This document shows positions 3,944 to 62,830 of a stretch of DNA of 64,000 bases, piece after piece (position 1 is the first letter of the stretch; each line of letters begins with the position of its first letter). This DNA comes from Glaucostegus cemiculus (Eukaryota), in assembly GCA_976551045.1 (NCBI GenBank), contig CDPCPM010000106.1, forward strand, positions 33,542,001-33,606,000, read 5' to 3'. The notes under the pieces were generated by a model that worked only from the letters and a program-made list of their open reading frames with translations, was not told the origin of the DNA and made no database searches. Position numbers and translations under genes: made by a program.

Positions 3944-4187
3944 TGCTGAGTCACATTAATTTTGCTTGTGTTGATTGGGAAAATAAAGGGAATCAAAGGA
4001 TATGGGGTTAGTGCAGGAAAATACTGCTCTGGTGAAAGACTGGTCAGGATATTGTTGGATGGCAGGTCAAAGGAATGAAAGGTCTACTCCAGCTTGTATG
4101 TCTTATTTGCTTATGTACTTAGCTGTCATATCAGCAGGCAACCATTATGCTGTGGCTTAAAGAAAGACTTGTGTTTCTGTAGCATCT

Positions 4188-5082
4188 CTACTATTGTTGG
4201 CAGAATCACGGGTGGCAATGAGTCAGTACAAGTCAGGAGCGAGACAGAACATCTGGTTGAGTGGTGCTGCAATAACAACCTCATGCTTAACGTCAGCAAA
4301 ACCAAGGAGCTAATTGTTGACTTCAGAAAAGGGAAGTCGGGAGACCACATGCCAGTCTCATTGGTGGGTCAGAGGTGGAGAGGGTGTACAGCTTCAAATT
4401 CCTGGGCATTAACATCTCAGATGATCTTTCCTAGCCCCAGCACATAGATTCAATCATGAAGAAGGTGTGTCAGTGCCTCTACTTTCTTAGAAGCTTAAGA
4501 AGATTCAGAATGTCACCAAGTACTCCAACAAACTTCTACGGATGAACTGTTAAAAGTATCCTGTCTGGCTGCATCATAACCTGGTATCGCATTCCAATGC
4601 ACAGGAACACAAGAGTCTGCAGAGAGTAGTGGACACAGCCCGGTCCATCACAGGCAAAGCCCTCCCCACCATTGACAGTGCTGCCTCAAGAAAGTGGCAT
4701 TTATCATCAAGGATCCCCACGATCCAGGTCATGCTTTCTTCTCGCTGCTACCATTGGGCAAGAGGTACAGAATCCTGAAGACCCACACCACCAGGTTCAG
4801 GAACAGCTACGTTCCTACAACCATCAGGTTCTTGAATTAACCTGCACAACCCTAACCCTACCTCAGCAACGGAGCACTATAGACCACCTCTTGCATTGCA
4901 ATGGATTTGCTTCTGTGTGTGTCTTTTCTTTTGCACAGTCCTTATTTTCTCTCTTCACTAACCTGTATTATTTATATTGTGTGTGTTGTCTGTACCTATG
5001 TGCCTGTGATGCTGCTGCAAACGAGTTTTTCATTGTACCTGCACCTCACCCTACTTGTGCACACAGCAATAACCTTGACTTC
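4188..5082 (+). mobile_element. Rex1/Babar LINE, second subfamily, 5'-truncated
   Basis: TIVGRITGGNES..LVEWCCNNNLMLNVSKTKELIVDFRK; 3' UTR TGTGCCTGTGATGCTGCTGCA and GACTT tail. Confidence 0.92.
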
Positions 5083-5119
5083 CCACTCCGTTTCAGAATT
5101 CCTGCTTCAGTACACAGAC

Positions 5120-5400
5120 ACTGAAGTATTCTTTGAGGTACAGTCGCTCCTTCAATGTGGAAAACTTTCAGACAACTTGCACATATTAAGGACCCACAAT
5201 CATCATTGTGATAATTTCCAGATAATTTGCCTTAGTTGATGCTAAGTGAAGGATGATTTTTGACTAGGACACTGAGAATGGCTCCTTTATTTTACTTCCA
5301 GAAGTGTGGTGGAAGCTTTTATCCCACCTAAACTGCAAATCAAGTTCACCATTTGTGCAGCCTCGGCTCAGTACTGAGCTGAGCTGGGACCACAGCCTAA
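5120..5400 (-). mobile_element. Old Deu-domain-type SINE remnant (SacSINE1-like)
   Basis: GATAAT..CCAGATAAT...AGGACAC core shared with copies at 24265, 31905, 57220; family name from recall. Confidence 0.5.
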
Positions 5401-5753
5401 GCGGTCCTTCCTAGAAGGCTGGGGTAATGCATCGTGCTAGGCCAGACCACCTGATACATAAATCCTATCATGTGTCTTGCATTCTGTTATGTTTGCTTCT
5501 CACTGCTGAATGAGAAGTGGATGTATGCCTGATTTAAAAGTATGAGTGAAGGGATGGAAAGTGGTCCTCATCTGATCATGAAATGCTTGCAATATGGCAG
5601 AAGGTCCATCATGTGGATCAGAATACAGATATCAACAGAACCGAACTTTAGAAATGGTGTACAATTTGAAACCACTGTGTTGTGCATTTACTGTGTCCAA
5701 CTGAAGACGAGCATCCATCTCAGTATGTCTCTAGCCTGATTCCATACTCTCAC

Positions 5754-6268
5754 CAGAATCAGGTTCACTATCACTGACATATGTCGTGAAATTTGTTGTT
5801 TTGTGGCAGCAGTACAGTACAAGAGATAAAAATTACTATAAGTTACAAAAATAAATAAATAGTGCAAAAGAGGAATGATGAGATAGGGTTCATGGACTGT
5901 TCAGAAATCTGTTGGCAGAGGGGAAGAAACTGTTCCTAAATTCTTCAGTGTGGGTCTTCAAGCACATGTACCTCCTCCCTGACTGTAGTAACAAGAAGAG
6001 GACATGTCCCAGATAGTGAGGGTCCTTACTGATGGATGCTGCCTTCTTGAGGCACTGCCTGTTGAAGATGTCCTCGATGGTGGGGAGGGTTGTGCCTGTA
6101 TTGGGGCTGGCTGAGTCTACAACCCTCTGCAGCCTCTTGTGATCCTGTGCATTGGAGCCTCCATACCAGGCGGTGATGCAACCAGTCAGAATGCTCTCCA
6201 CCGTACATCTGTAGAAATTTGCAAATGTCTTTGGTGACATACCGAATCTCCTCAAACTCCTAATGAAG
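5754..6268 (-). mobile_element. Rex1/Babar LINE 3' fragment
   Basis: ORF 5890..6255 FYRCTVESILTGCITAWYG...FRNSFFPSANRFLN; close to the 3160 copy. Confidence 0.93.
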
Positions 6269-6269
6269 T

Positions 6270-6427
6270 TGGAAGATCATCAATGTGGTGAAAGATGCCC
6301 TTTGATCTGCACAAATCTTGTTGGTCTCCCAACACAGCAAGATGAACGTGGGGGAACACTGCCAACTGGCACAGTCCAGGCTGAGGGATGCACTGAAGCT
6401 CAGTGAAGCCAATGCAAAGGCTTTATG
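6270..6427 (+). mobile_element. Tx1-type (L1 clade) LINE ORF2 C-terminal fragment
   Basis: Translates WKIINVVKDAL*SAQILLV...CQLAQSRLRDALKLSEANAKA, resembling my recollection of Tx1 ORF2 ends. Confidence 0.65.
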
Positions 6428-6429
6428 TC

Positions 6430-6772
6430 CACATCTTTTGCCATACCTCGTCTCCAGCTGAACTGCTTCTTACCCCCCACCCCACCCCCAGTACTTTTAC
6501 GTTAAACTACATTCTGAAGTTTAAGTCCCTCCAGCCCTGCGTTCGCCACCCCATCCCACACTCTGTTCCTCTGTCTCCCACCTAAGGTGCAGTCCTCTTC
6601 CTCCATCTCCACACACCCTTGGCTGCCTGCTTTAGCCATCACCACATCCACTGCAGTTGCCTCCTTCAACCCCTACGTTCTTCCGTTCACACCTCTTTGT
6701 TCATGCCCAATTTCCTCACACCTCTGTGACAGATACTGGAAGGTTTTCCTAATTCACAAGGCCTTGTTTTAA
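6430..6772 (+). mobile_element. Highly degenerate L2-like LINE 3' region
   Basis: Pyrimidine-rich, weakly similar to the L2 remnant at 19960-20270. Confidence 0.35.
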
Positions 6773-6844
6773 GATTCCACTGATCCAAATTCTGATGTTT
6801 AGAAGGCTAACAGTTATTGATCCAGATGATACTCTTAGCCTCAC

Positions 6845-7135
6845 GTGGGATGTATCACTGTCAAGACCAGCATTTACTGCCCATCCCTAATTGTCCTTGA
6901 GAAGGTGGCAGTGTGCTTATGTTTGTTCAGGAGATAACCCGCTTCCAATTAAGAGTCTTCAACCTGATGCACTAAGTCTGTTCATATTTCTACAGAAGCT
7001 GTGTGGTCTGCTGCAATTTTCAGGCACTTTCTATTTTTATCCTGAACATTTACTCCAGTTTCTATTTTTGCATGATAACTTCCAGAATTTCCTTTTTTCA
7101 TTCCCTGATTTCCAACACCTGCAGTTTTTCATTTT
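6845..7135. mobile_element. L2/Crack-type tail (-, ~6845-6912) followed by degenerate PLE terminal repeats (+)
   Basis: CCAGCATTTACTGCCCATCCCTAATTGTCCTTGAGAAGGTGG; then eroded ...GATTTCCAACACCTGCAG motifs. Confidence 0.55.
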
Positions 7136-8539
7136 TAGTAAATATTTAGTACAGTACTCCTTCACTATTGTACCGCAGTGTCAGCCTGCACTATTTTTTT
7201 TCTAGTCTCTGGAGTGAAACATGAAACCAGCATCTTCTGAGGCAAGAATATTGAAGTGGAGACATTGGTAATTTAGATCACCAACTCACATGGATAGAGA
7301 TCACTAAGGTCATCAAAAAAATTAAGAAGCAGTAATGAGGGTTGCTTTCTTTCTTAAAACTGTATTACCAAAGGAAATTTAAATACTAAAACTTGAAGGA
7401 ATAAGTACCCTATATTGTCAGAAGGCTAGGTTGCTCATTTCAATTTAGTCAACTAAATGACTACTTTCATAAATACAAAATTCACAACCCTAATACAAGG
7501 TAGGAAATGATTAAAAACATTCACTTGTGGAAGAAGGTCTCATGGAATCCCTGTTGTTCAGGGTCATTGGAAACTGTTGAAAAATGGGTTCGGAATTAGT
7601 GGGATTAAAACTCAAATTGACTGAGCTATTGGTCCACAGACTATCATTATAATTTATTCTAATTTGTAATCCAATGTCTTCTGATGCAGAGTTATCTGAA
7701 TCATTTACTGAAAACTGCTTCACACTGAATAGATTCTTTCCAGGTTCAATCAATGAATATTCCAAAAACTTCTTTCTTTTTGAGTTTCCAGTAGACATCC
7801 ATTTACATGGCACATTATGATTGCACTTACCAATTGTACATGCATTATCCCACACCTATTCTCATCGAAACCATCTCCCACATGTTATTCTTTCCATATA
7901 CTTGTTCCAAATGTCTTAGAGGTTGATAAGTCTCATTTGACCATGACTAATTTAACCTATCCTAGATCACTGAAGTCTAACAAGTTAAGACAACTACATC
8001 ATGGTTACACTGCTTAGGATGTCAGTTGTGAATCAGATTAACAAACTTGTTGAAAAGGTTCTTAAAAAGTTTCCATATTCAAAGATATAATTAGTAGCTA
8101 AAGATTTGCCCAAGTTTTGTGTCTTAAATCTGAGTTACCTGATTATCAAGAAACAAAATGGCTTCTACGAATCACACAGATAAAATAGCTTGGGGTTTTA
8201 TAATAGGTGCAATGCATCAAGCAGTCTTTTAAATAAGTGATGATCCCCTGTCAAATGCTGTCTGTGTCAGTACTGGTGATGTTAGCCTTGTCTGTATCCC
8301 TCTTGCTGGCAATCACTTGTATATGCCTGAAGCAGGATACATCCAGACTGGCTCGGAGAACCAGGTCTCCAGGGATTTGTCTCACAAATAATATAAACCT
8401 TTGAGAAATGGCTTATCCATTCCAGCTCTGGAAGTTCTAATGATGCCTCTCTCATGATTTTGCCTCCATTGGTGTCACGTATCAGATCATGCCAAGCACA
8501 ATGCAAACTACTTCATGAAACTTATTATTTTGTTAATCA

Positions 8540-9020
8540 GGTAAGGGATGTCGATATAACTGGCAAGGCCCAGCATTCACTGTTTGCCCGTGAGAAGGTA
8601 GTGATGAGCCATCTGAATCAGTAGCCTTCCCTATCCGCAGTGCCGCTCCGTACGGAGTCCCTGGATTTTGACCCATTGACAGTGCCATAACAGTGACATA
8701 ATTCCAAGACAGGACAGTGTGGGACTTGGAGGGGACGTTGGAGGTAATGTTCCATTTCTCCTTCCAAGTAGCCGAGATTGTGGTTACATGAGGAGTCGTT
8801 GAGGAAGGTTTTGAATGGTTGTGAGACATTTTATGGGTCACTGAACTGATGGTGGAGACAGTGGTTGTTCAGGTAGGTGGCTAGAGTGCCAGTTAAGCAA
8901 ACTGCCTTGTCCCAGTGCTACCATGGTTCTCAGTCACTGTTGGATCTTCACTCGTCCAAGCAAGTGGATGGTATTCCTCAAACCCTTGACTTTGTCTTGT
9001 GCCAGTGAAAAGACCTTGGT
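8540..9020 (-). mobile_element. L2/Crack-type LINE 3' fragment
   Basis: Reverse-complement homolog of 35690-36092 (GGATTTTGACCC, GACTTGGAGGGGAC, GGCAAGGCCCAGCATT). Confidence 0.7.
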
Positions 9021-9899: not shown

Positions 9900-11898
9900 G
9901 AGTGGTTAAGGAGAAGGTAGAGATTAAGTCAAGTAAGTCTAATTGGACAAACACACAGGGCCAGGCTAATGAACACGGCAGGAATGATGTTCTGAAGTGT
10001 ATTTATTTTAATGCAAGGAGTATAAGGCAGATGCACTTAGAGCCTGGATTAGAACATGGAACTACAATATTGCAGCTATTACAGAAACCTGTTTGAGAGA
10101 AAGACAGAACTGGTAGTTCCATGTTCCAGGGTTTAGATATGTCAGAGACAGATGTAAAAAAGGTGGGGAGTTGCATTACTGATTAGAGAGAATGTCACAG
10201 CTGCACTAAGAGAAGATACCGTGGAGGGCTCATCCAGTGAGGCCAGGAATAAGAAAGGTGCGGTCACTGTGATCGGGTTATACCATAAGCCTCCCACTAG
10301 CCAGCGGAAGCTAGAGGAACAGATCTGCAGGCAGATCATGGAAAGATGTAAAAACAATAGGGTTAGTGGGTGATCTTATCTTCCCCAATATTGACTGGGA
10401 CTCCCTTAGTGCCTGGGACTTAGATGGGGCAGAATTTTCTAGGTGCATCCAGGAGAATTTCTTGAAACTGTAGATAGCCCAACTGTGGATGGAGATGTAC
10501 AAGATCTTATACTGGAGAATGAGCTTGGCCAAATGATCGAAGTTTCAGTGAGGGAGAACTTTGGGAGCAGTGACCACAAATCTTTAAGATTTAAGAGATT
10601 CATAATTCACAAGATTCTTAAGGATAAGACTGTTTAATTGGTGGAAGGTTAATTACAATGGTTTTAGGCAGGAACTGGAGAAAGTAGATTCAAAGCAGGG
10701 TAGGTCTATACAAGGACAAAGGAGGGACTTTATGCGTGGAGCCAGAGGAAGCGGATGAGATTCTTAATGAGTACTTTGCAATGGTATTCATTAAGTAGAA
10801 GACATAGATGATGGTGAGATTTGGGAGGGGTATGTTGATATTCCAGTGCATATTGATATTAAGAAGGAGGTGGTGTTTGGTGTCCTGAAAAACATTAAGC
10901 TGGATAAAACCCCAGGGACTAATGGAATCTATCTCAGGATGCTGAGGGAAGCAAGGGCAGACATTACTGGGTCCTTGACAGAGGTCCTTTTATGCTCTTT
11001 AGCAACAGATGTGGTCCCAGAAGACTGGATAATAGTCAATGTTGTCCCCTTGTTTAATAAGGGCAACAGGGACAAACACAGAAATTATAGGCCGGCGAGC
11101 CTTACCTCAGTGGTAGGGAAATTGTTGGAGAGGATTCTTATGGACAGGATTTGCTCATATTTGGAAAAACATAGATTTATTAGGAAGGGTCAACATGTCT
11201 TTGTGTGGGAGAGGTTCTGTCTCATAAATTTCATTGAGTTTTTTGAGGAAGCGAAGATTATGATTGATGACAGTAGGGCAGTGAATGTTGTCTACATGGG
11301 CTTTAGTAAAGCATTTGATAAGGTCCCTCATGTTAGGTTGGTCGAGAAGATTAAGTCACATGGGACATTAATTTAGTAAATTGGATTCAAAATTGGCTTG
11401 GTCATAGAAGACAGAGAGTAGTGTTAGTGGGGTGTTTCTCTTACTGGAGGTCTGTGATCAGCAATGTTCTACAAGGATCAGTGCTTGGACCTCTGTTGTT
11501 TGTAACAAATATTAATGATCTAGATGAAAATGTGAGTTGTCTGCTCAGTAAGTTTGCTGATGACACAGAAATTGATGGAGTTTTGGATAGCGCGGAATGT
11601 TGTCAAAGGATATAACAAGATAAAGAGCATTTGGAAATCAGGTGTTGCATTTTGGGAGGTCGATTACAAGAGGAAAGTAGACAATAAATGGTAGGGCCCA
11701 CAGGAGCATTGATGTTCAGAGGGATCTTGGGGTGCTAGTCCACCGCTTCCTGAAAGTGGCAACACAAACAGATAGGGTGGCAAATAAGCTGTACAGCACA
11801 CTTGTTCTCCATCGGGGCATTGAGTATTAAAGTCAGGAAGTCATGTTGCATTTATGTAAAACTTTGGTTTGGCCTCAATTGGAATACGGTGTGGAGTT
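9900..11898 (+). mobile_element. CR1 LINE (HER1-like) ORF2 remnant: APE endonuclease plus RT, internally deleted, with stops and frameshifts
   Basis: LKCIYFNARSI at ~9992; VPEDW..NVVPLFNKG..NYRPASLTSVVGKLLE; FSKAFDKVPH; QGSVLGPLLF; KFADDT. Confidence 0.96.
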
Positions 11899-22156: not shown

Positions 22157-22352
22157 TAGACACAAGAGACTGCAGATGCTAGAATCTGGAGCAACACACA
22201 AAATACTGGAGAAACTCAGTGAGTCAACCAGCATCTGTGGAGAGAAATTGACAGTCGACGTTTTGGGTCCAGGTGAAGGGTCTCGACCTGAAACGTCAAC
22301 GGTACATTTCCCTCCACAGATGCTGCTTGACCTGCTGAGTTTCACCAGCACC
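22157..22352. mobile_element. Penelope-like terminal repeat fold-back unit with hammerhead-derived motif at ~22267-22301 (+)
   Basis: Inverted arms; centre GTCC AGGTGA AGGGTCTCGACCT GAAAC GTC. Confidence 0.88.
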
Positions 22353-22444
22353 TCGAGGTCTCATCAGTCTAAGTTTGATTAACAGATCAATTATTCAATC
22401 ATCTCCACTTTGTACTGTCTAGAGTCTTTTTTATTCATTGACAG

Positions 22445-29199: not shown

Positions 29200-30300
29200 A
29201 CTTCCCGCACGTCTGTCCTTTCTCTCACCCCCCATCTCCCAGCCGACATAACAGGGACAAGGGAGTCGACCACATGAACACCCCCCGACCCCATGACCAC
29301 CACACAAGCCTCCGCATCCAACACATCATTCTCCACAACTTCTGCCACCTCCAACAGGATCCCACCACCAGGCACATCTTCCCCTCACCCCTTCTCTCTG
29401 CTTTGCACAGGGACCGCTCTCTCCGCAACTCCCTTATCCACCCGTCCCTCCCCACTGATAACCCCGCCGGCACTTATGCCTGTAACCGCACCAAGTGCTA
29501 CACATGTCCCTACACCTCCTCCCTCACCACTGTTCAGGGTCCCAGACACTCCTTCCAGGTGAGGCCGAGGGTGTCATTTATTGCGTCTGGTGCTCCCAGT
29601 GCGGCCTCCTGTACATTGGTGAGACCCGACGCAGATTGGGTGACCGCTTCATCCAGCGCCTTTGCTCCCTCCACAACAGCCAGGATCTCCCGGTGGCCAC
29701 CCACTTCAATTCCACATCCCACTCCCACACTGACATGTCTATCCATGGCCTCCTCTACTGCCACATTGAGGCCAAATGCAGATTGGAGGAACGACACCTC
29801 ATATTCTGCCTTGGGAGTCTCCAACCTGATGGTCTCAACATTGATTTCTTTAACTTCTTGAACCCTGACACCTTTTCTACCCCCCCCACCCTACTCCTTT
29901 GTCTTCCCTATTCCTGTGGCTCCCTTCCCCCACCTGGATGACCTGCTCGTCTTCTCTCCTCCCCTCCTCCATCCTTTATTCCATGGTCCACTGCCCTCTC
30001 CTACCGGATTCCTCCTTCTTCAGCCTTTTGCCTCTTCTACCTATCACCTCCCCCTCCACCACCCACTACTTTCCCCCCCTCACCTGGACTCACCTCTCCC
30101 CTGCCTGCATGTGCTCCTCCCCCTCCTTCCACCTTCTTAGAGTGCTTCTGCCCTCTTCCTTTCCAGTCCTGATGAAGGGTCTCGGCCTAAAACATCGACT
30201 GTCCATTTCCCCCACAGATGCTGCCTGACCCGTTGAGTTCCTCCAGCACTTTTTGTGTATTGCTCCATATTCCAACTTCTGCAGAATTTCTTGTGTCTCC
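29200..30300 (+). mobile_element. Penelope-like retroelement (Neptune type), 5'-truncated: Cys-rich linker, GIY-YIG endonuclease remnant, 3' terminal repeat
   Basis: GTYACNRTKCYTCP (ORF 29274), then after a frameshift GVIYCVWCSQCGLLYIGETRRRLGDRF..PVATHFN..LEERHLIFCLGSLQPDGLNIDF (ORF 29495). Confidence 0.95.
30164..30201 (+). ncRNA. Minimal type I hammerhead ribozyme motif, mutated
   Basis: CAGTC-CTGATGA-A-GGGTC-TC-GGCCT-AAAAC-ATC-GACTG: stem I CAGTC/GACTG and CUGAUGA intact; GAAAC>AAAAC and GTC>ATC at former CpGs. Confidence 0.8.
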
Positions 30301-30385: not shown

Positions 30386-30595
30386 AGAGAATCAAAGGAC
30401 CGCAGATGCTGGAATCTAGAAGAAAAACACTATGATGCTGGAGGAACTCAGCAGTCCAGGCAGCATCCGTGGAGAAAAGCAGGAGGTCAATGTTTCAGAT
30501 CAGGACCCTTCTTCAGGACTGAAGATAGGAAAAGGGGAAGCCCAATATATAGGAGGGAAAAGCAGAGCAGTGAAGGTGGATATAGGGGAGAGGAC
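30386..30595 (-). mobile_element. PLE terminal repeat of a second subfamily
   Basis: GCAGATGCTGGAATCT..GCTGGAGGAACTCAGC..GACCCTTCTTCAGGACT. Confidence 0.85.
30485..30520 (-). ncRNA. Minimal hammerhead motif with intact core boxes
   Basis: Minus strand AGTC-CTGAAGA-A-GGGTC-CT-GATCT-GAAAC-ATT-GACC. Confidence 0.75.
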
Positions 30596-30707: not shown

Positions 30708-30915
30708 TTGTCCAGGAACAGCTGCTTCCCCTCCACCATCAGATTTCTGAACGGCCCATGCACCCATGAACACTACCTCATTATTCCTTTTTTTGCACTA
30801 TTTATTTATTTTTGTAAGTTATAGTAATTTTATATCTTTGCACTGTACTGCTGCCGCAAAACAGCAAATTTTACGTCATGTAAGTCAGTGACAATAAACC
30901 TGATTCCGATTCGGA
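30708..30915 (+). mobile_element. Rex1/Babar 3' tail
   Basis: AGGAACAGCTGCTTCCCCTCCACCATCAGATTTCTGAAC...AATAAACCTGATTCCGATT. Confidence 0.88.
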
Positions 30916-33180: not shown

Positions 33181-33396
33181 TTAAAAAGCAGCCTGCTGGA
33201 AATACTCAGCCAACCAAGTAGCATCTGTGGATCAATGTTTCAGGTCACGACCTTGCATAAGGATGATCCAGCTGCAGGGTCTCCACCCGAAACATCGATC
33301 ATCCCTTTGCTCCACAGATGCTGCTTGACCTGCTGAGCTCTCCCAGCAGTTTGCTTTTTAACTCTAGACTTCAGCACCTGCAGTCACTTATCTCTC
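33181..33396. mobile_element. PLE fold-back unit with perfect 13-bp TSD
   Basis: CACACTAGCCCAG at 33168-33180 and 33397-33409; inverted arms; degenerate hammerhead at ~33265-33300. Confidence 0.9.
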
Positions 33397-36092: not shown

Positions 36093-37261
36093 AGTAAAAA
36101 ACAAACTGCTCCATTCTCTCCATTGTGGAAGGATTTGAGTTCATAGATATTTTATACTTTCACAAAAGGTCCACAGCATTATTTCAAAGAAGCGAAATCT
36201 CACCAGTGCCTTGTGTATCATTCACTTCTCCACTGACATCACAACACAAATTACATGACCAATGCTAAACCACCATTTGATTAGCACAAGTCTCTCCCCT
36301 TTACCCTGCAGCACAATAGTGACAAGGCTTCATAAGTACCTAATTGAATGTAAAGCTCTTGGGGTGACCTGAGGATGTGTAGAGTTCTTTAGAAATGCAC
36401 ATTTTCCTAATGAAAAGTGTTGTTTGCAATAGGCAGCTCATACAATATGATTAGTATGCAATTGCAGGCAGTTCAACTTTACATCTAACTTCTGCTGCAC
36501 TTAACCTAAACTTCAGTCTTAAGGCTGGGTGACAAGGAAGTACAAATAATGAGCCTGAATTTGAGACAATATAATGGTGAGGCATATGGCTTTTTGGCTA
36601 CTTACTAACTTGAATGGCATTCCAGGTGGTGAAACACAATTTCAACAGCAACAATAGCTGGGTTTATAGGTGGGAAAGTACAAAAGGCTAAGATTTCTCC
36701 TCACCTCGCCTTTTGGAAAAATTGTTGTCTTATATGCCAAAGTCTGCTGTCTAAGTTCTTCCATTCTGGTAATAACTTCCTGTAACCACATTTCTGATAT
36801 TTGGATCAACATCAACAGCTATTGACTGTGATGAAGTGGATAAATTTGCATCACAAATATTTAGAACCTTTTTCTCAATGTGGCAGTTGTTAATGAATGT
36901 CAATCAATCTATCCAGCACCAAAAATTAAATCTTCTCAGTGCGTAGTCTCATTGTGTTGTAAATTGTTGCAGATATTTTATTGATTTAGATTTTTTTTTA
37001 GGAGTGTCTCTTCTCTTTTCTCTCTCTCTTTCAGTCCAATTGTTTCTTGTCTTTATTTCAGGTGTGAACTTTTAAGGACCACTCCTGGGGTCAAAGCTGT
37101 GAGGAGAAGTTCCACGACATGGAAAATGCCACCTGTAATATCTGCTCCCGGAATAGTGTCACACAAGAGAGCCCACTCCTGCTGTTTTGAAACTGGCACT
37201 AACATGTTTTGCAATTTTTGCACAATTTGAAAATAAAAAATACAAAAATTGCAAAACATGT

Positions 37262-37797
37262 TTGTGCAATTGTCTGTAATTCTGGTCACCCCATTACAGG
37301 AAGGATATGGAAGTTTTGGAAAAGGTACAGAAGTTTACCAAGATACTATCTGGATTAGAGGGTATCAGCTATAACGAGAGGCTGAACAAACTTGGGTTGC
37401 TTTCACTGGAGCGCCGGAGGCTGACAGGAGACCTGATAGAAGTTTAAAAAAGTATGAGAGGCATAGATGGGGTAGACAGTCAGAATCTTTCTCCTGAGGT
37501 AGAGATGTCAAGTACCAGATGACATGCATCTGAGGTGAGGGGGGAAAGTTCAAAGGAGGTGTGCAGGGAAAGTTTTTTTACACAGAGAGTGGTACATGCC
37601 TGGAATGGGCTGCCAAGGGGAGTGGTGAAAGCAGATATGATAGTGGCATATATGAGTGTTTTAGATAGGCACATTATACAGGGAAAGGAGGGATATGAAT
37701 CACGTGCCTGAAGAAGAAATTTAGTTTAATTTGGCATTGTGGTCGGTGCAGACATTGTGGGCTGAAGGGCCTGTTCCTGTGCTGTACTGTTCTATAT
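37262..37797 (+). mobile_element. CR1 3' fragment
   Basis: TTCTGGTCACCCCATTACAGGAAGGAT (FWSPHYRKD), FFTQRVV.AWN.LP, CR1 tail. Confidence 0.92.
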
Positions 37798-62610: not shown

Positions 62611-62830
62611 GGAGGGACAACAGACCACAGACGCTGGAATCTGGAGCAACAAAACAAACTGCTGGAGGAACTCAGCGGGTCAGGTAGCATCTATGGAGGG
62701 AAATGGACAGTTGCCATCTCAGGTCAAGGCCCTTCACCTTGACAATTTACTTTTCTTCTCTCTACTGCTGCCTGACCTGCTGAGTATTTCCAGCATTTTC
62801 TGTACTTATTTCAGTTTTCCAGCACTATTT
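62611..62830. mobile_element. Inverted pair of PLE terminal repeats
   Basis: GCTGGAGGAACTCAGCGGGTCAGGTAGCA versus TGCTGCCTGACCTGCTGAGTATTTCCAGC. Confidence 0.8.

Follow-up and report, generated by a model that had tools for sequence, protein, structure and literature searches.

Positions 30164 to 30201 of the window (the whole 64,000-nucleotide stretch of Glaucostegus cemiculus DNA analyzed here) can with considerable confidence be assigned to a minimal type I hammerhead ribozyme that has decayed through CpG transitions and is very likely inactive, and that lies in the terminal repeat (pLTR) of a Penelope-like element (PLE), likely of the Neptune clade, at the end of a 5'-truncated insertion (Table 1). 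The evidence for this assignment comes from the motif and its surroundings, and the end positions of related copies elsewhere in the genome bear on how such insertions may have been made.

The decayed motif and its host element

The motif is made up of CAGTC (30164-68), the CTGATGA box (30169-75) and a single A (30176), GGGTC-TC-GGCCT (30177-88), AAAAC (30189-93), ATC (30194-96) and GACTG (30197-201); cleavage is predicted to fall between 30196 and 30197. With C3 (30169) taken as position 0, the cut lies at +27/+28 and the motif starts at -5. An earlier note, made by eye, had spelled out these letters and listed sister copies at 2440(-), 22267, 24537, 30485(-) and 33265; the letters are reproduced exactly in the window sequence, all five copies are present, and the anatomy that the note proposed (stems, boxes and a loopless ACGU palindrome) agrees with the majority sequence of the family. 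Helix I closes the motif, and helix II begins with G10.1-C11.1 in the family and with G-U or A-U at 10.1-11.1 in the oldest subfamily. The stem II consensus proposed earlier, GACCC, does not hold for the subfamily of the window copy: 90% or more of the 30 closest long copies read GGCCC, with a U-G wobble. An NUH triplet together with the CUGANGA and GAAA boxes characterizes the majority of 30 long copies and of subfamily groups; this combination is absent from the window copy (G12A) and from the U4A and A9C subfamilies described below. The ACGU palindrome of stem III is likewise the majority form in the 30 long copies and is lost in the window copy; CA and TG forms of the palindrome are consistent with CpG decay. 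The free positions N7, loop II and N17 differ between subfamilies.

A search with the hammerhead core pattern gave two matches at three or fewer mismatches and none in 100 shuffles, and the motif is therefore not due to chance. None of the 19 matches at E <=1 in an Rfam scan was a hammerhead. The assignment follows from the exact match to the minimal hammerhead consensus, as described by Cervera and De la Pena (2014, PMC4209133), together with the pLTR location, and not from covariation.

Compared with the majority sequence of its subfamily, the window copy has only three differences, C11.1U (30188), G12A (30189) and G16.2A (30194), and all three fall at CpG sites. This upholds the earlier proposal that the copy died by CpG transitions (GAAAC to AAAAC and GTC to ATC) and adds the C to T change at 30188 as a third. 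ATC is still a legal NUH triplet, and the harm of that change falls on the stem III palindrome. The change at 30194 breaks the palindrome and shifts the stem III duplex from -3.1 to +2.8 kcal/mol, and the closest copies on the same strand, 3.1 kb and 5.6 kb away, both have damaged cores. G12A removes the general base, a loss reported to slow minimal hammerheads more than 500-fold and full-length hammerheads about a million-fold (PMC2553840). Given G12A, the broken palindrome and no intact same-strand partner nearby, the window copy is very likely dead, as judged from its sequence.

The remnant that carries the motif corresponds to the last kilobase, at the 3' side, of longer copies with reverse transcriptase, with alignments at 73-82% (42 matches among the 40 scored of 12,173 candidates in the genome). 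Its linker region shares 41% identity with the corresponding part of a protein with reverse transcriptase plus GIY-YIG, and its GIY-YIG remnant shares 49% identity, across 94 aa, with the C-terminus of P0019, while the Pfam match to GIY-YIG (E 0.0054, 17.4 bits) lies under the 22.6 cut-off. Homologues of the element protein carry RVT_1 plus GIY-YIG, and the window remnant matches them; the best named relatives of the reverse transcriptase are from Mobula (69%), Chiloscyllium (65%) and Stegostoma (62%). Copies of about 3 kb elsewhere in the genome have pieces of endonuclease and a broken reverse transcriptase; not one of the copies seen is unbroken. In L228-L230, the N-terminal coding region includes, about 150-400 nt from the beginning of the aligned part, a proline/alanine/serine-rich tandem repeat of variable copy number that differs between copies. 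None of the four longest copies examined keeps a tandem upstream pLTR, the sampled DNA yielded no pLTR-ORF junction, and no target duplication of 6 nt or more surrounds the window copy. The neighboring insertion of another subfamily lies tail to tail with the window copy, 104 nt apart, and since it is on the opposite strand it is not a dimer partner in cis.

As for the proposed Neptune-type PLE context, the PLE part is well founded, and the word Neptune refers to the CX4CX2C linker and the C-terminal endonuclease only. The CX2-5CxxC linker is described as absent in Penelope/Poseidon and reduced in Nematis (PMC8557442), and judged by its linker the element likely belongs to the Neptune clade rather than to Penelope/Poseidon.

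Table 1. Features at and around the hammerhead motif (positions of the window)
Feature	Position	Strand	Basis
5'-truncated Penelope-like element remnant, last ~1 kb of ~3-kb element	29295..30298	+	alignment to longer copies
CX4CX2C linker, Neptune-type zinc-finger-like	29481..29507	+	translation
GIY-YIG endonuclease remnant with CCHH-type residues, frameshifted relative to the linker	29567..29863	+	Pfam and protein match
Pyrimidine-rich upstream part of terminal repeat	29865..30163	+	conservation among 30 long copies
Minimal type I hammerhead, decayed (38 nt)	30164..30201	+	sequence
Site matching the 5' boundary favored by short genomic copies (-5 to +4 relative to C3)	30164..30173	+	end mapping
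Downstream end of terminal repeat, optional ~35-nt tail at about 30262-30298	30202..30298	+	two 3'-end clusters
Separate insertion, other subfamily (N7 = A, N17 = U)	30400..30554	-	sequence comparison

Abundance, covariation and core variants of the family

The abundance figures come from a convenience and non-random sample of the genome: 157 10-kb stretches, taken at round positions of large contigs and spread over 33 regions, for 1.57 Mb in all. Scanning this sample with a profile built from the sequence that follows the ribozyme gave 285 copies, and none on the reversed sequence; this corresponds to about 180 copies per Mb (1 to 17 hits per region, both arms of inverted pairs counted) and, if the sample is typical, extrapolates to about 0.5 million copies genome-wide. 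The window has 17 family hits by profile, 16 of which include the terminal part. The earlier note had supposed that the lineage spread many ribozyme copies through the genome; the spread is borne out, and the material that was spread is mostly debris. Among the 137 copies that reach C3, 22 keep the core, 14 of these with the canonical box; one combines core, box and both stems, and none has the palindrome as well. Nothing suggests that the genomic copies work as ribozymes.

Several other features were noted in the window and in the sample. Four head-to-head inverted pairs of stubs, about 200 nt each, lie in the window at 1484-1684, 22163-22354, 33193-33384 and 62625-62823; their junctions are at or within the ribozyme, and transcripts across them would fold as long hairpins. 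Another abundant repeat at about 30710-30910 has 30 matches in the 1.57-Mb sample, the best at about 80-86%. An AT-rich, near-perfect palindrome at 37195-37268, with weak microRNA matches on both strands that all fall under gathering scores, is likely the remnant of a small inverted-repeat transposon. A 193-aa open frame at 10795-11376 (+) may resemble a reverse transcriptase fragment of a CR1-type LINE. In the sample, three near-identical segments (L154, L155 and L156, in G000:C172) each have a PLE fragment beside an open frame which, we presume, is akin to a B30.2/PRY-SPRY exon, and they are probably a tandemly duplicated gene cluster.

The covariation check that the earlier note had proposed gave a divided answer. 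Pair 2.1-1.1 is C-G in three subfamily groups and U-A in 30 of 41 copies of the oldest group, a clear compensatory change in stem I between subfamilies; it is the single clear double change and counts as one evolutionary event. The overall score for the whole structure is not above that of shuffles (0.206 versus 0.196, sd 0.012; 95 of 500 shuffles, at the copy level), the alignment for this analysis omitting 7 of 57 listed long copies because of deletions or bad anchoring. In a register test on 52 aligned copies, 75% of cells are paired versus 17-37% in slid registers. Folding energy was rejected as evidence, since the monomer folds to a non-hammerhead hairpin with z about -1.6 in dead and intact copies alike; an intact copy, too, has a predicted minimum other than the hammerhead fold (-12.7 kcal/mol, versus -10.5 for the hammerhead; z -1.6), and co-folding of two copies gives a dimer of the non-hammerhead form. 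A conserved structure of the downstream domain was likewise not supported by consensus folding (-4.1 kcal/mol).

Two changes in the core are far more frequent than their background. In the younger groups, 21 of 93 copies have U4A, against 3 of 98 for T>A at N7, and A9C (giving CUGAUGC) occurs in 35 of 108 copies, against 1 to 4 of about 107 for A>C. The two are never found together (none of 20 scorable U4A copies has the C, p 8e-5), and the A9C variant is accompanied by changes that reduce the length of stem I (A at 1.5 in 24 of 35 copies versus 7 of 67). Taken at the level of sequence, U4A and A9C are traits of two amplified subfamilies with non-canonical cores, which could have been mobilized in trans. 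A reading of CUGAUGCA as a shifted bulge, with an extra base before A9, was ranked under a degraded A9C core, which is preferred because the A9C subfamily also loses stem I pairs.

Ends of the genomic copies and how they may arise

For end mapping, 272 of the 285 copies were kept, 5 being left out for short flanks and 8 for low score. The 5' ends pile up at the front edge of the ribozyme: 75 of the 165 copies at risk end at -5 to +4, compared with 12 of 90 at -15 to -6 and 14 of 234 in the bin of the cut site (+25 to +34; p 6e-21 versus the front edge). The same holds for copies of at least 85% identity, 20 of 39 of which end at the front edge versus 4 of 67 at the cut site. In a simulation control, ends placed at the cut site were recovered in the proper bin in 203 of 240 cases, and uniform truncation came out flat. 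Rather than falling on a single base, the front edge is spread raggedly over about 9 nt and has peaks at -4, -2, +2, +3 and +4. A spurious origin of the pile, from misalignment of diverged subfamilies, was rejected on the grounds of the flat uniform-truncation simulation and the composition of the flanks, which are 51% pyrimidine in short solo copies versus 75% in the real upstream pLTR (above 0.7 in 1 of 65 versus 53 of 63).

The 3' ends fall into two clusters, near +90 to +100 and near +130, which by analogy with PMC11167929, where internal starts of reverse transcription are reported to define the tail, likely represent two start sites of reverse transcription. The commonest insertions are stubs of 95-135 nt or inverted pairs of about 200 nt. 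There are 35 head-to-head pairs, 26 of which have the tail on exactly one arm, and inverted copies are also found at L162 and L228.

These ends could be accounted for as follows. In a source element, two motifs would pair via ACGU and so complete stem III, and the RNA would be cleaved after GUC, either at a slow rate or assisted by the protein of the element, as envisaged in published work. Reverse transcriptase would begin internally, at either of two sites that lie about 95 and 130 nt downstream of C3, and run to an RNA 5' end placed at the ribozyme front edge, a proposal that we consider evenly balanced between right and wrong. The products would be the dominant stubs and the head-to-head pairs. 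Since the copies start at the front edge and not at the cutting site, their template was likely RNA that had not yet self-cleaved, and cleavage would be a side or late step that insertion does not require. The front-edge pile and the U4A and A9C subfamilies fit with the published dispensability of cleavage for insertion in vitro, where ribozyme mutants of a lizard PLE are reported to insert normally from unprocessed RNA (PMC11167929). A promoter has been described inside the pLTR (PMC2377424, PMC6765202).

The main rival to an RNA start at the front edge is a splice acceptor, which we regard as unlikely. The YCAG/TY sequence at the front edge resembles an initiator and also a splice acceptor. 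If the front edge were a 3' splice site (polypyrimidine tract, CAG/TC), stubs would end there through splicing or through blocks by splicing factors. The pyrimidine tract and CAG are preserved in all four subfamily groups, one of the boundary peaks is at -2, and the end of the Penelope intron in D. virilis is reported to map to the 5' end of helix I (PMC4209133). A weak hint also comes from RNA reads of another organism, in which the family is present on both strands. An RNA-only joint, mostly sense (L005:2195-2317), skips 121 nt and lands exactly after the AG of the front-edge CAG, with 7, 7 and 12 reads in three RNA runs and 0 in a DNA run of a third organism. The 5' side of this joint is TA, however, not GT, and the joint could be a splice or stem from one deletion copy that is expressed. 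Read starts and ends do not pile up in the three RNA runs, an observation that is uninformative given the fragmented libraries and the huge passive background. Against splicing, the boundary has the further peaks outside -2, and a spliced first exon was looked for in the flanks of solo copies and none was found: upstream element sequence is present in 0 of 68 short solos, and only 1 of 2,278 pairs of flanks matches, that one being a local duplicate; a first exon in common was therefore not copied.

On a second rival reading, ribozyme cutting of the transposition RNA would be obligatory, with a linear 5'-OH or circular template, and the short copies would come from the cut product. This was proposed in PMC4209133, and several subfamilies have a majority sequence with an intact core; we nevertheless think it improbable, given that 5' ends show no excess at the cut site, as described above, the altered cores of two amplified subfamilies (one with stem I shortened too) and the normal insertion of mutants in vitro (PMC11167929). 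It is the linear cut template that is disfavored, as end positions alone do not decide on a circular one.

Slightly more doubtful still is the suggestion of an independent family, SINE-like or retrozyme-like, made up of the short copies and replicating from its own short masters that start at the ribozyme. Most copies (200 of 272) do begin downstream of -25, and retrozymes are described as non-autonomous derivatives of PLEs (bioRxiv 10.64898/2026.07.22.740005). Long and short members occur in every subfamily group, however, both ends are heterogeneous, the copies are dispersed singles or inverted pairs without tandem arrays, and target duplications of at least 8 nt flank only 4 of 68 solos (control 1 of 336).

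That the window copy itself is a functional ribozyme used by the host is hardly credible, for although its CUGAUGA box is unbroken and its stems I and II still pair, it has G12A and a broken palindrome, its divergence is ordinary (7% at non-CpG sites) and its nearest same-strand copies are damaged in the core. The family shows no sign of selection after insertion either, mutated cells numbering 8 of 232 in the core, 25 of 520 in the rest of the motif and 730 of 11,093 in the ORF with CpG sites excluded; core positions of long copies mutate at about the neutral rate. At least 2 of the 29 other long copies (L005, L026) are fully intact.

Known systems and the role of the ribozyme

The motif class, its pLTR location and the dimer model are already published, and dimer-dependent, weak or protein-assisted cleavage is the published model for PLE hammerheads. 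The PLE hammerheads described in PMC4209133 share with the family analyzed here the CUGANGA box, the extra nucleotide, G10.1-C11.1 and GAAA, a palindromic 15.2-16.2 without loop 3, a short helix I, a U-rich upstream sequence, the location in the pLTR and mostly solitary truncated copies. Helix II is shorter here, with 4-5 bp and a 2-3-nt loop versus 7-8 bp in Schistosoma (PMC4209133), and the CAGAUGA and CUGAUGC subfamilies lie outside the published consensus CUGANGAH (PMC4209133). The termini implied here, about 0.5 million, contrast with 4,000-9,000 in coelacanth and Xenopus (PMC4209133), figures that cover intact motifs only and are not like for like. The part of supplement file 2 of PMC4209133 that was available contains no shark or skate term. 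In the literature search, no paper described this hammerhead family from sharks or rays; the work of Lunse, Weinberg and Breaker (2016) may cover it.

The element PAc of Anolis carolinensis (Frangieh et al. 2024, PMC11167929) also has a pLTR hammerhead and two classes of 3' end about 35 nt apart (the tail), and in that study no RNA reads end at its cut site and insertion proceeds from uncut RNA. PAc is active and belongs to the Poseidon clade, whereas the element here has a Neptune-type linker and only broken copies. Neptune-clade EN+ PLEs (Craig et al. 2021, PMC8557442) have the C-terminal GIY-YIG with CCHH and the CX2-5CxxC linker, and their insertions resemble those here in heavy 5' truncation, an inverted upstream copy and a tail at one end; they differ in that most insertions here are only short stubs or inverted pairs. 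Non-LTR retrozymes, reported from one chondrichthyan genome, share the type I hammerhead and the ancestry in a PLE pLTR, and they form tandem arrays with intact ribozymes (bioRxiv 10.64898/2026.07.22.740005), unlike the dispersed and decayed copies here, none of 137 of which is fully intact.

The function of PLE hammerheads has been called unclear (PMC8557442), and the end positions of very many copies provide a genome-scale, sequence-only test of their role, one that speaks against a linear template produced by cutting and is in accord with the single in vitro study. A family with about 180 termini per Mb that escapes Rfam is also relevant to annotation, and the natural U4A and A9C subfamilies are ready-made variants for assays. 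On a tentative view, to which we give somewhat less than an even chance, the half-million stubs would be an in vivo fossil record of an internal start of reverse transcription, of an RNA 5' boundary at the front edge and of uncut RNA as template. If this is true, the continued amplification of the U4A and A9C subfamilies would mean either that the ribozyme is a passenger dispensable for insertion or that their cores are unreported active variants.
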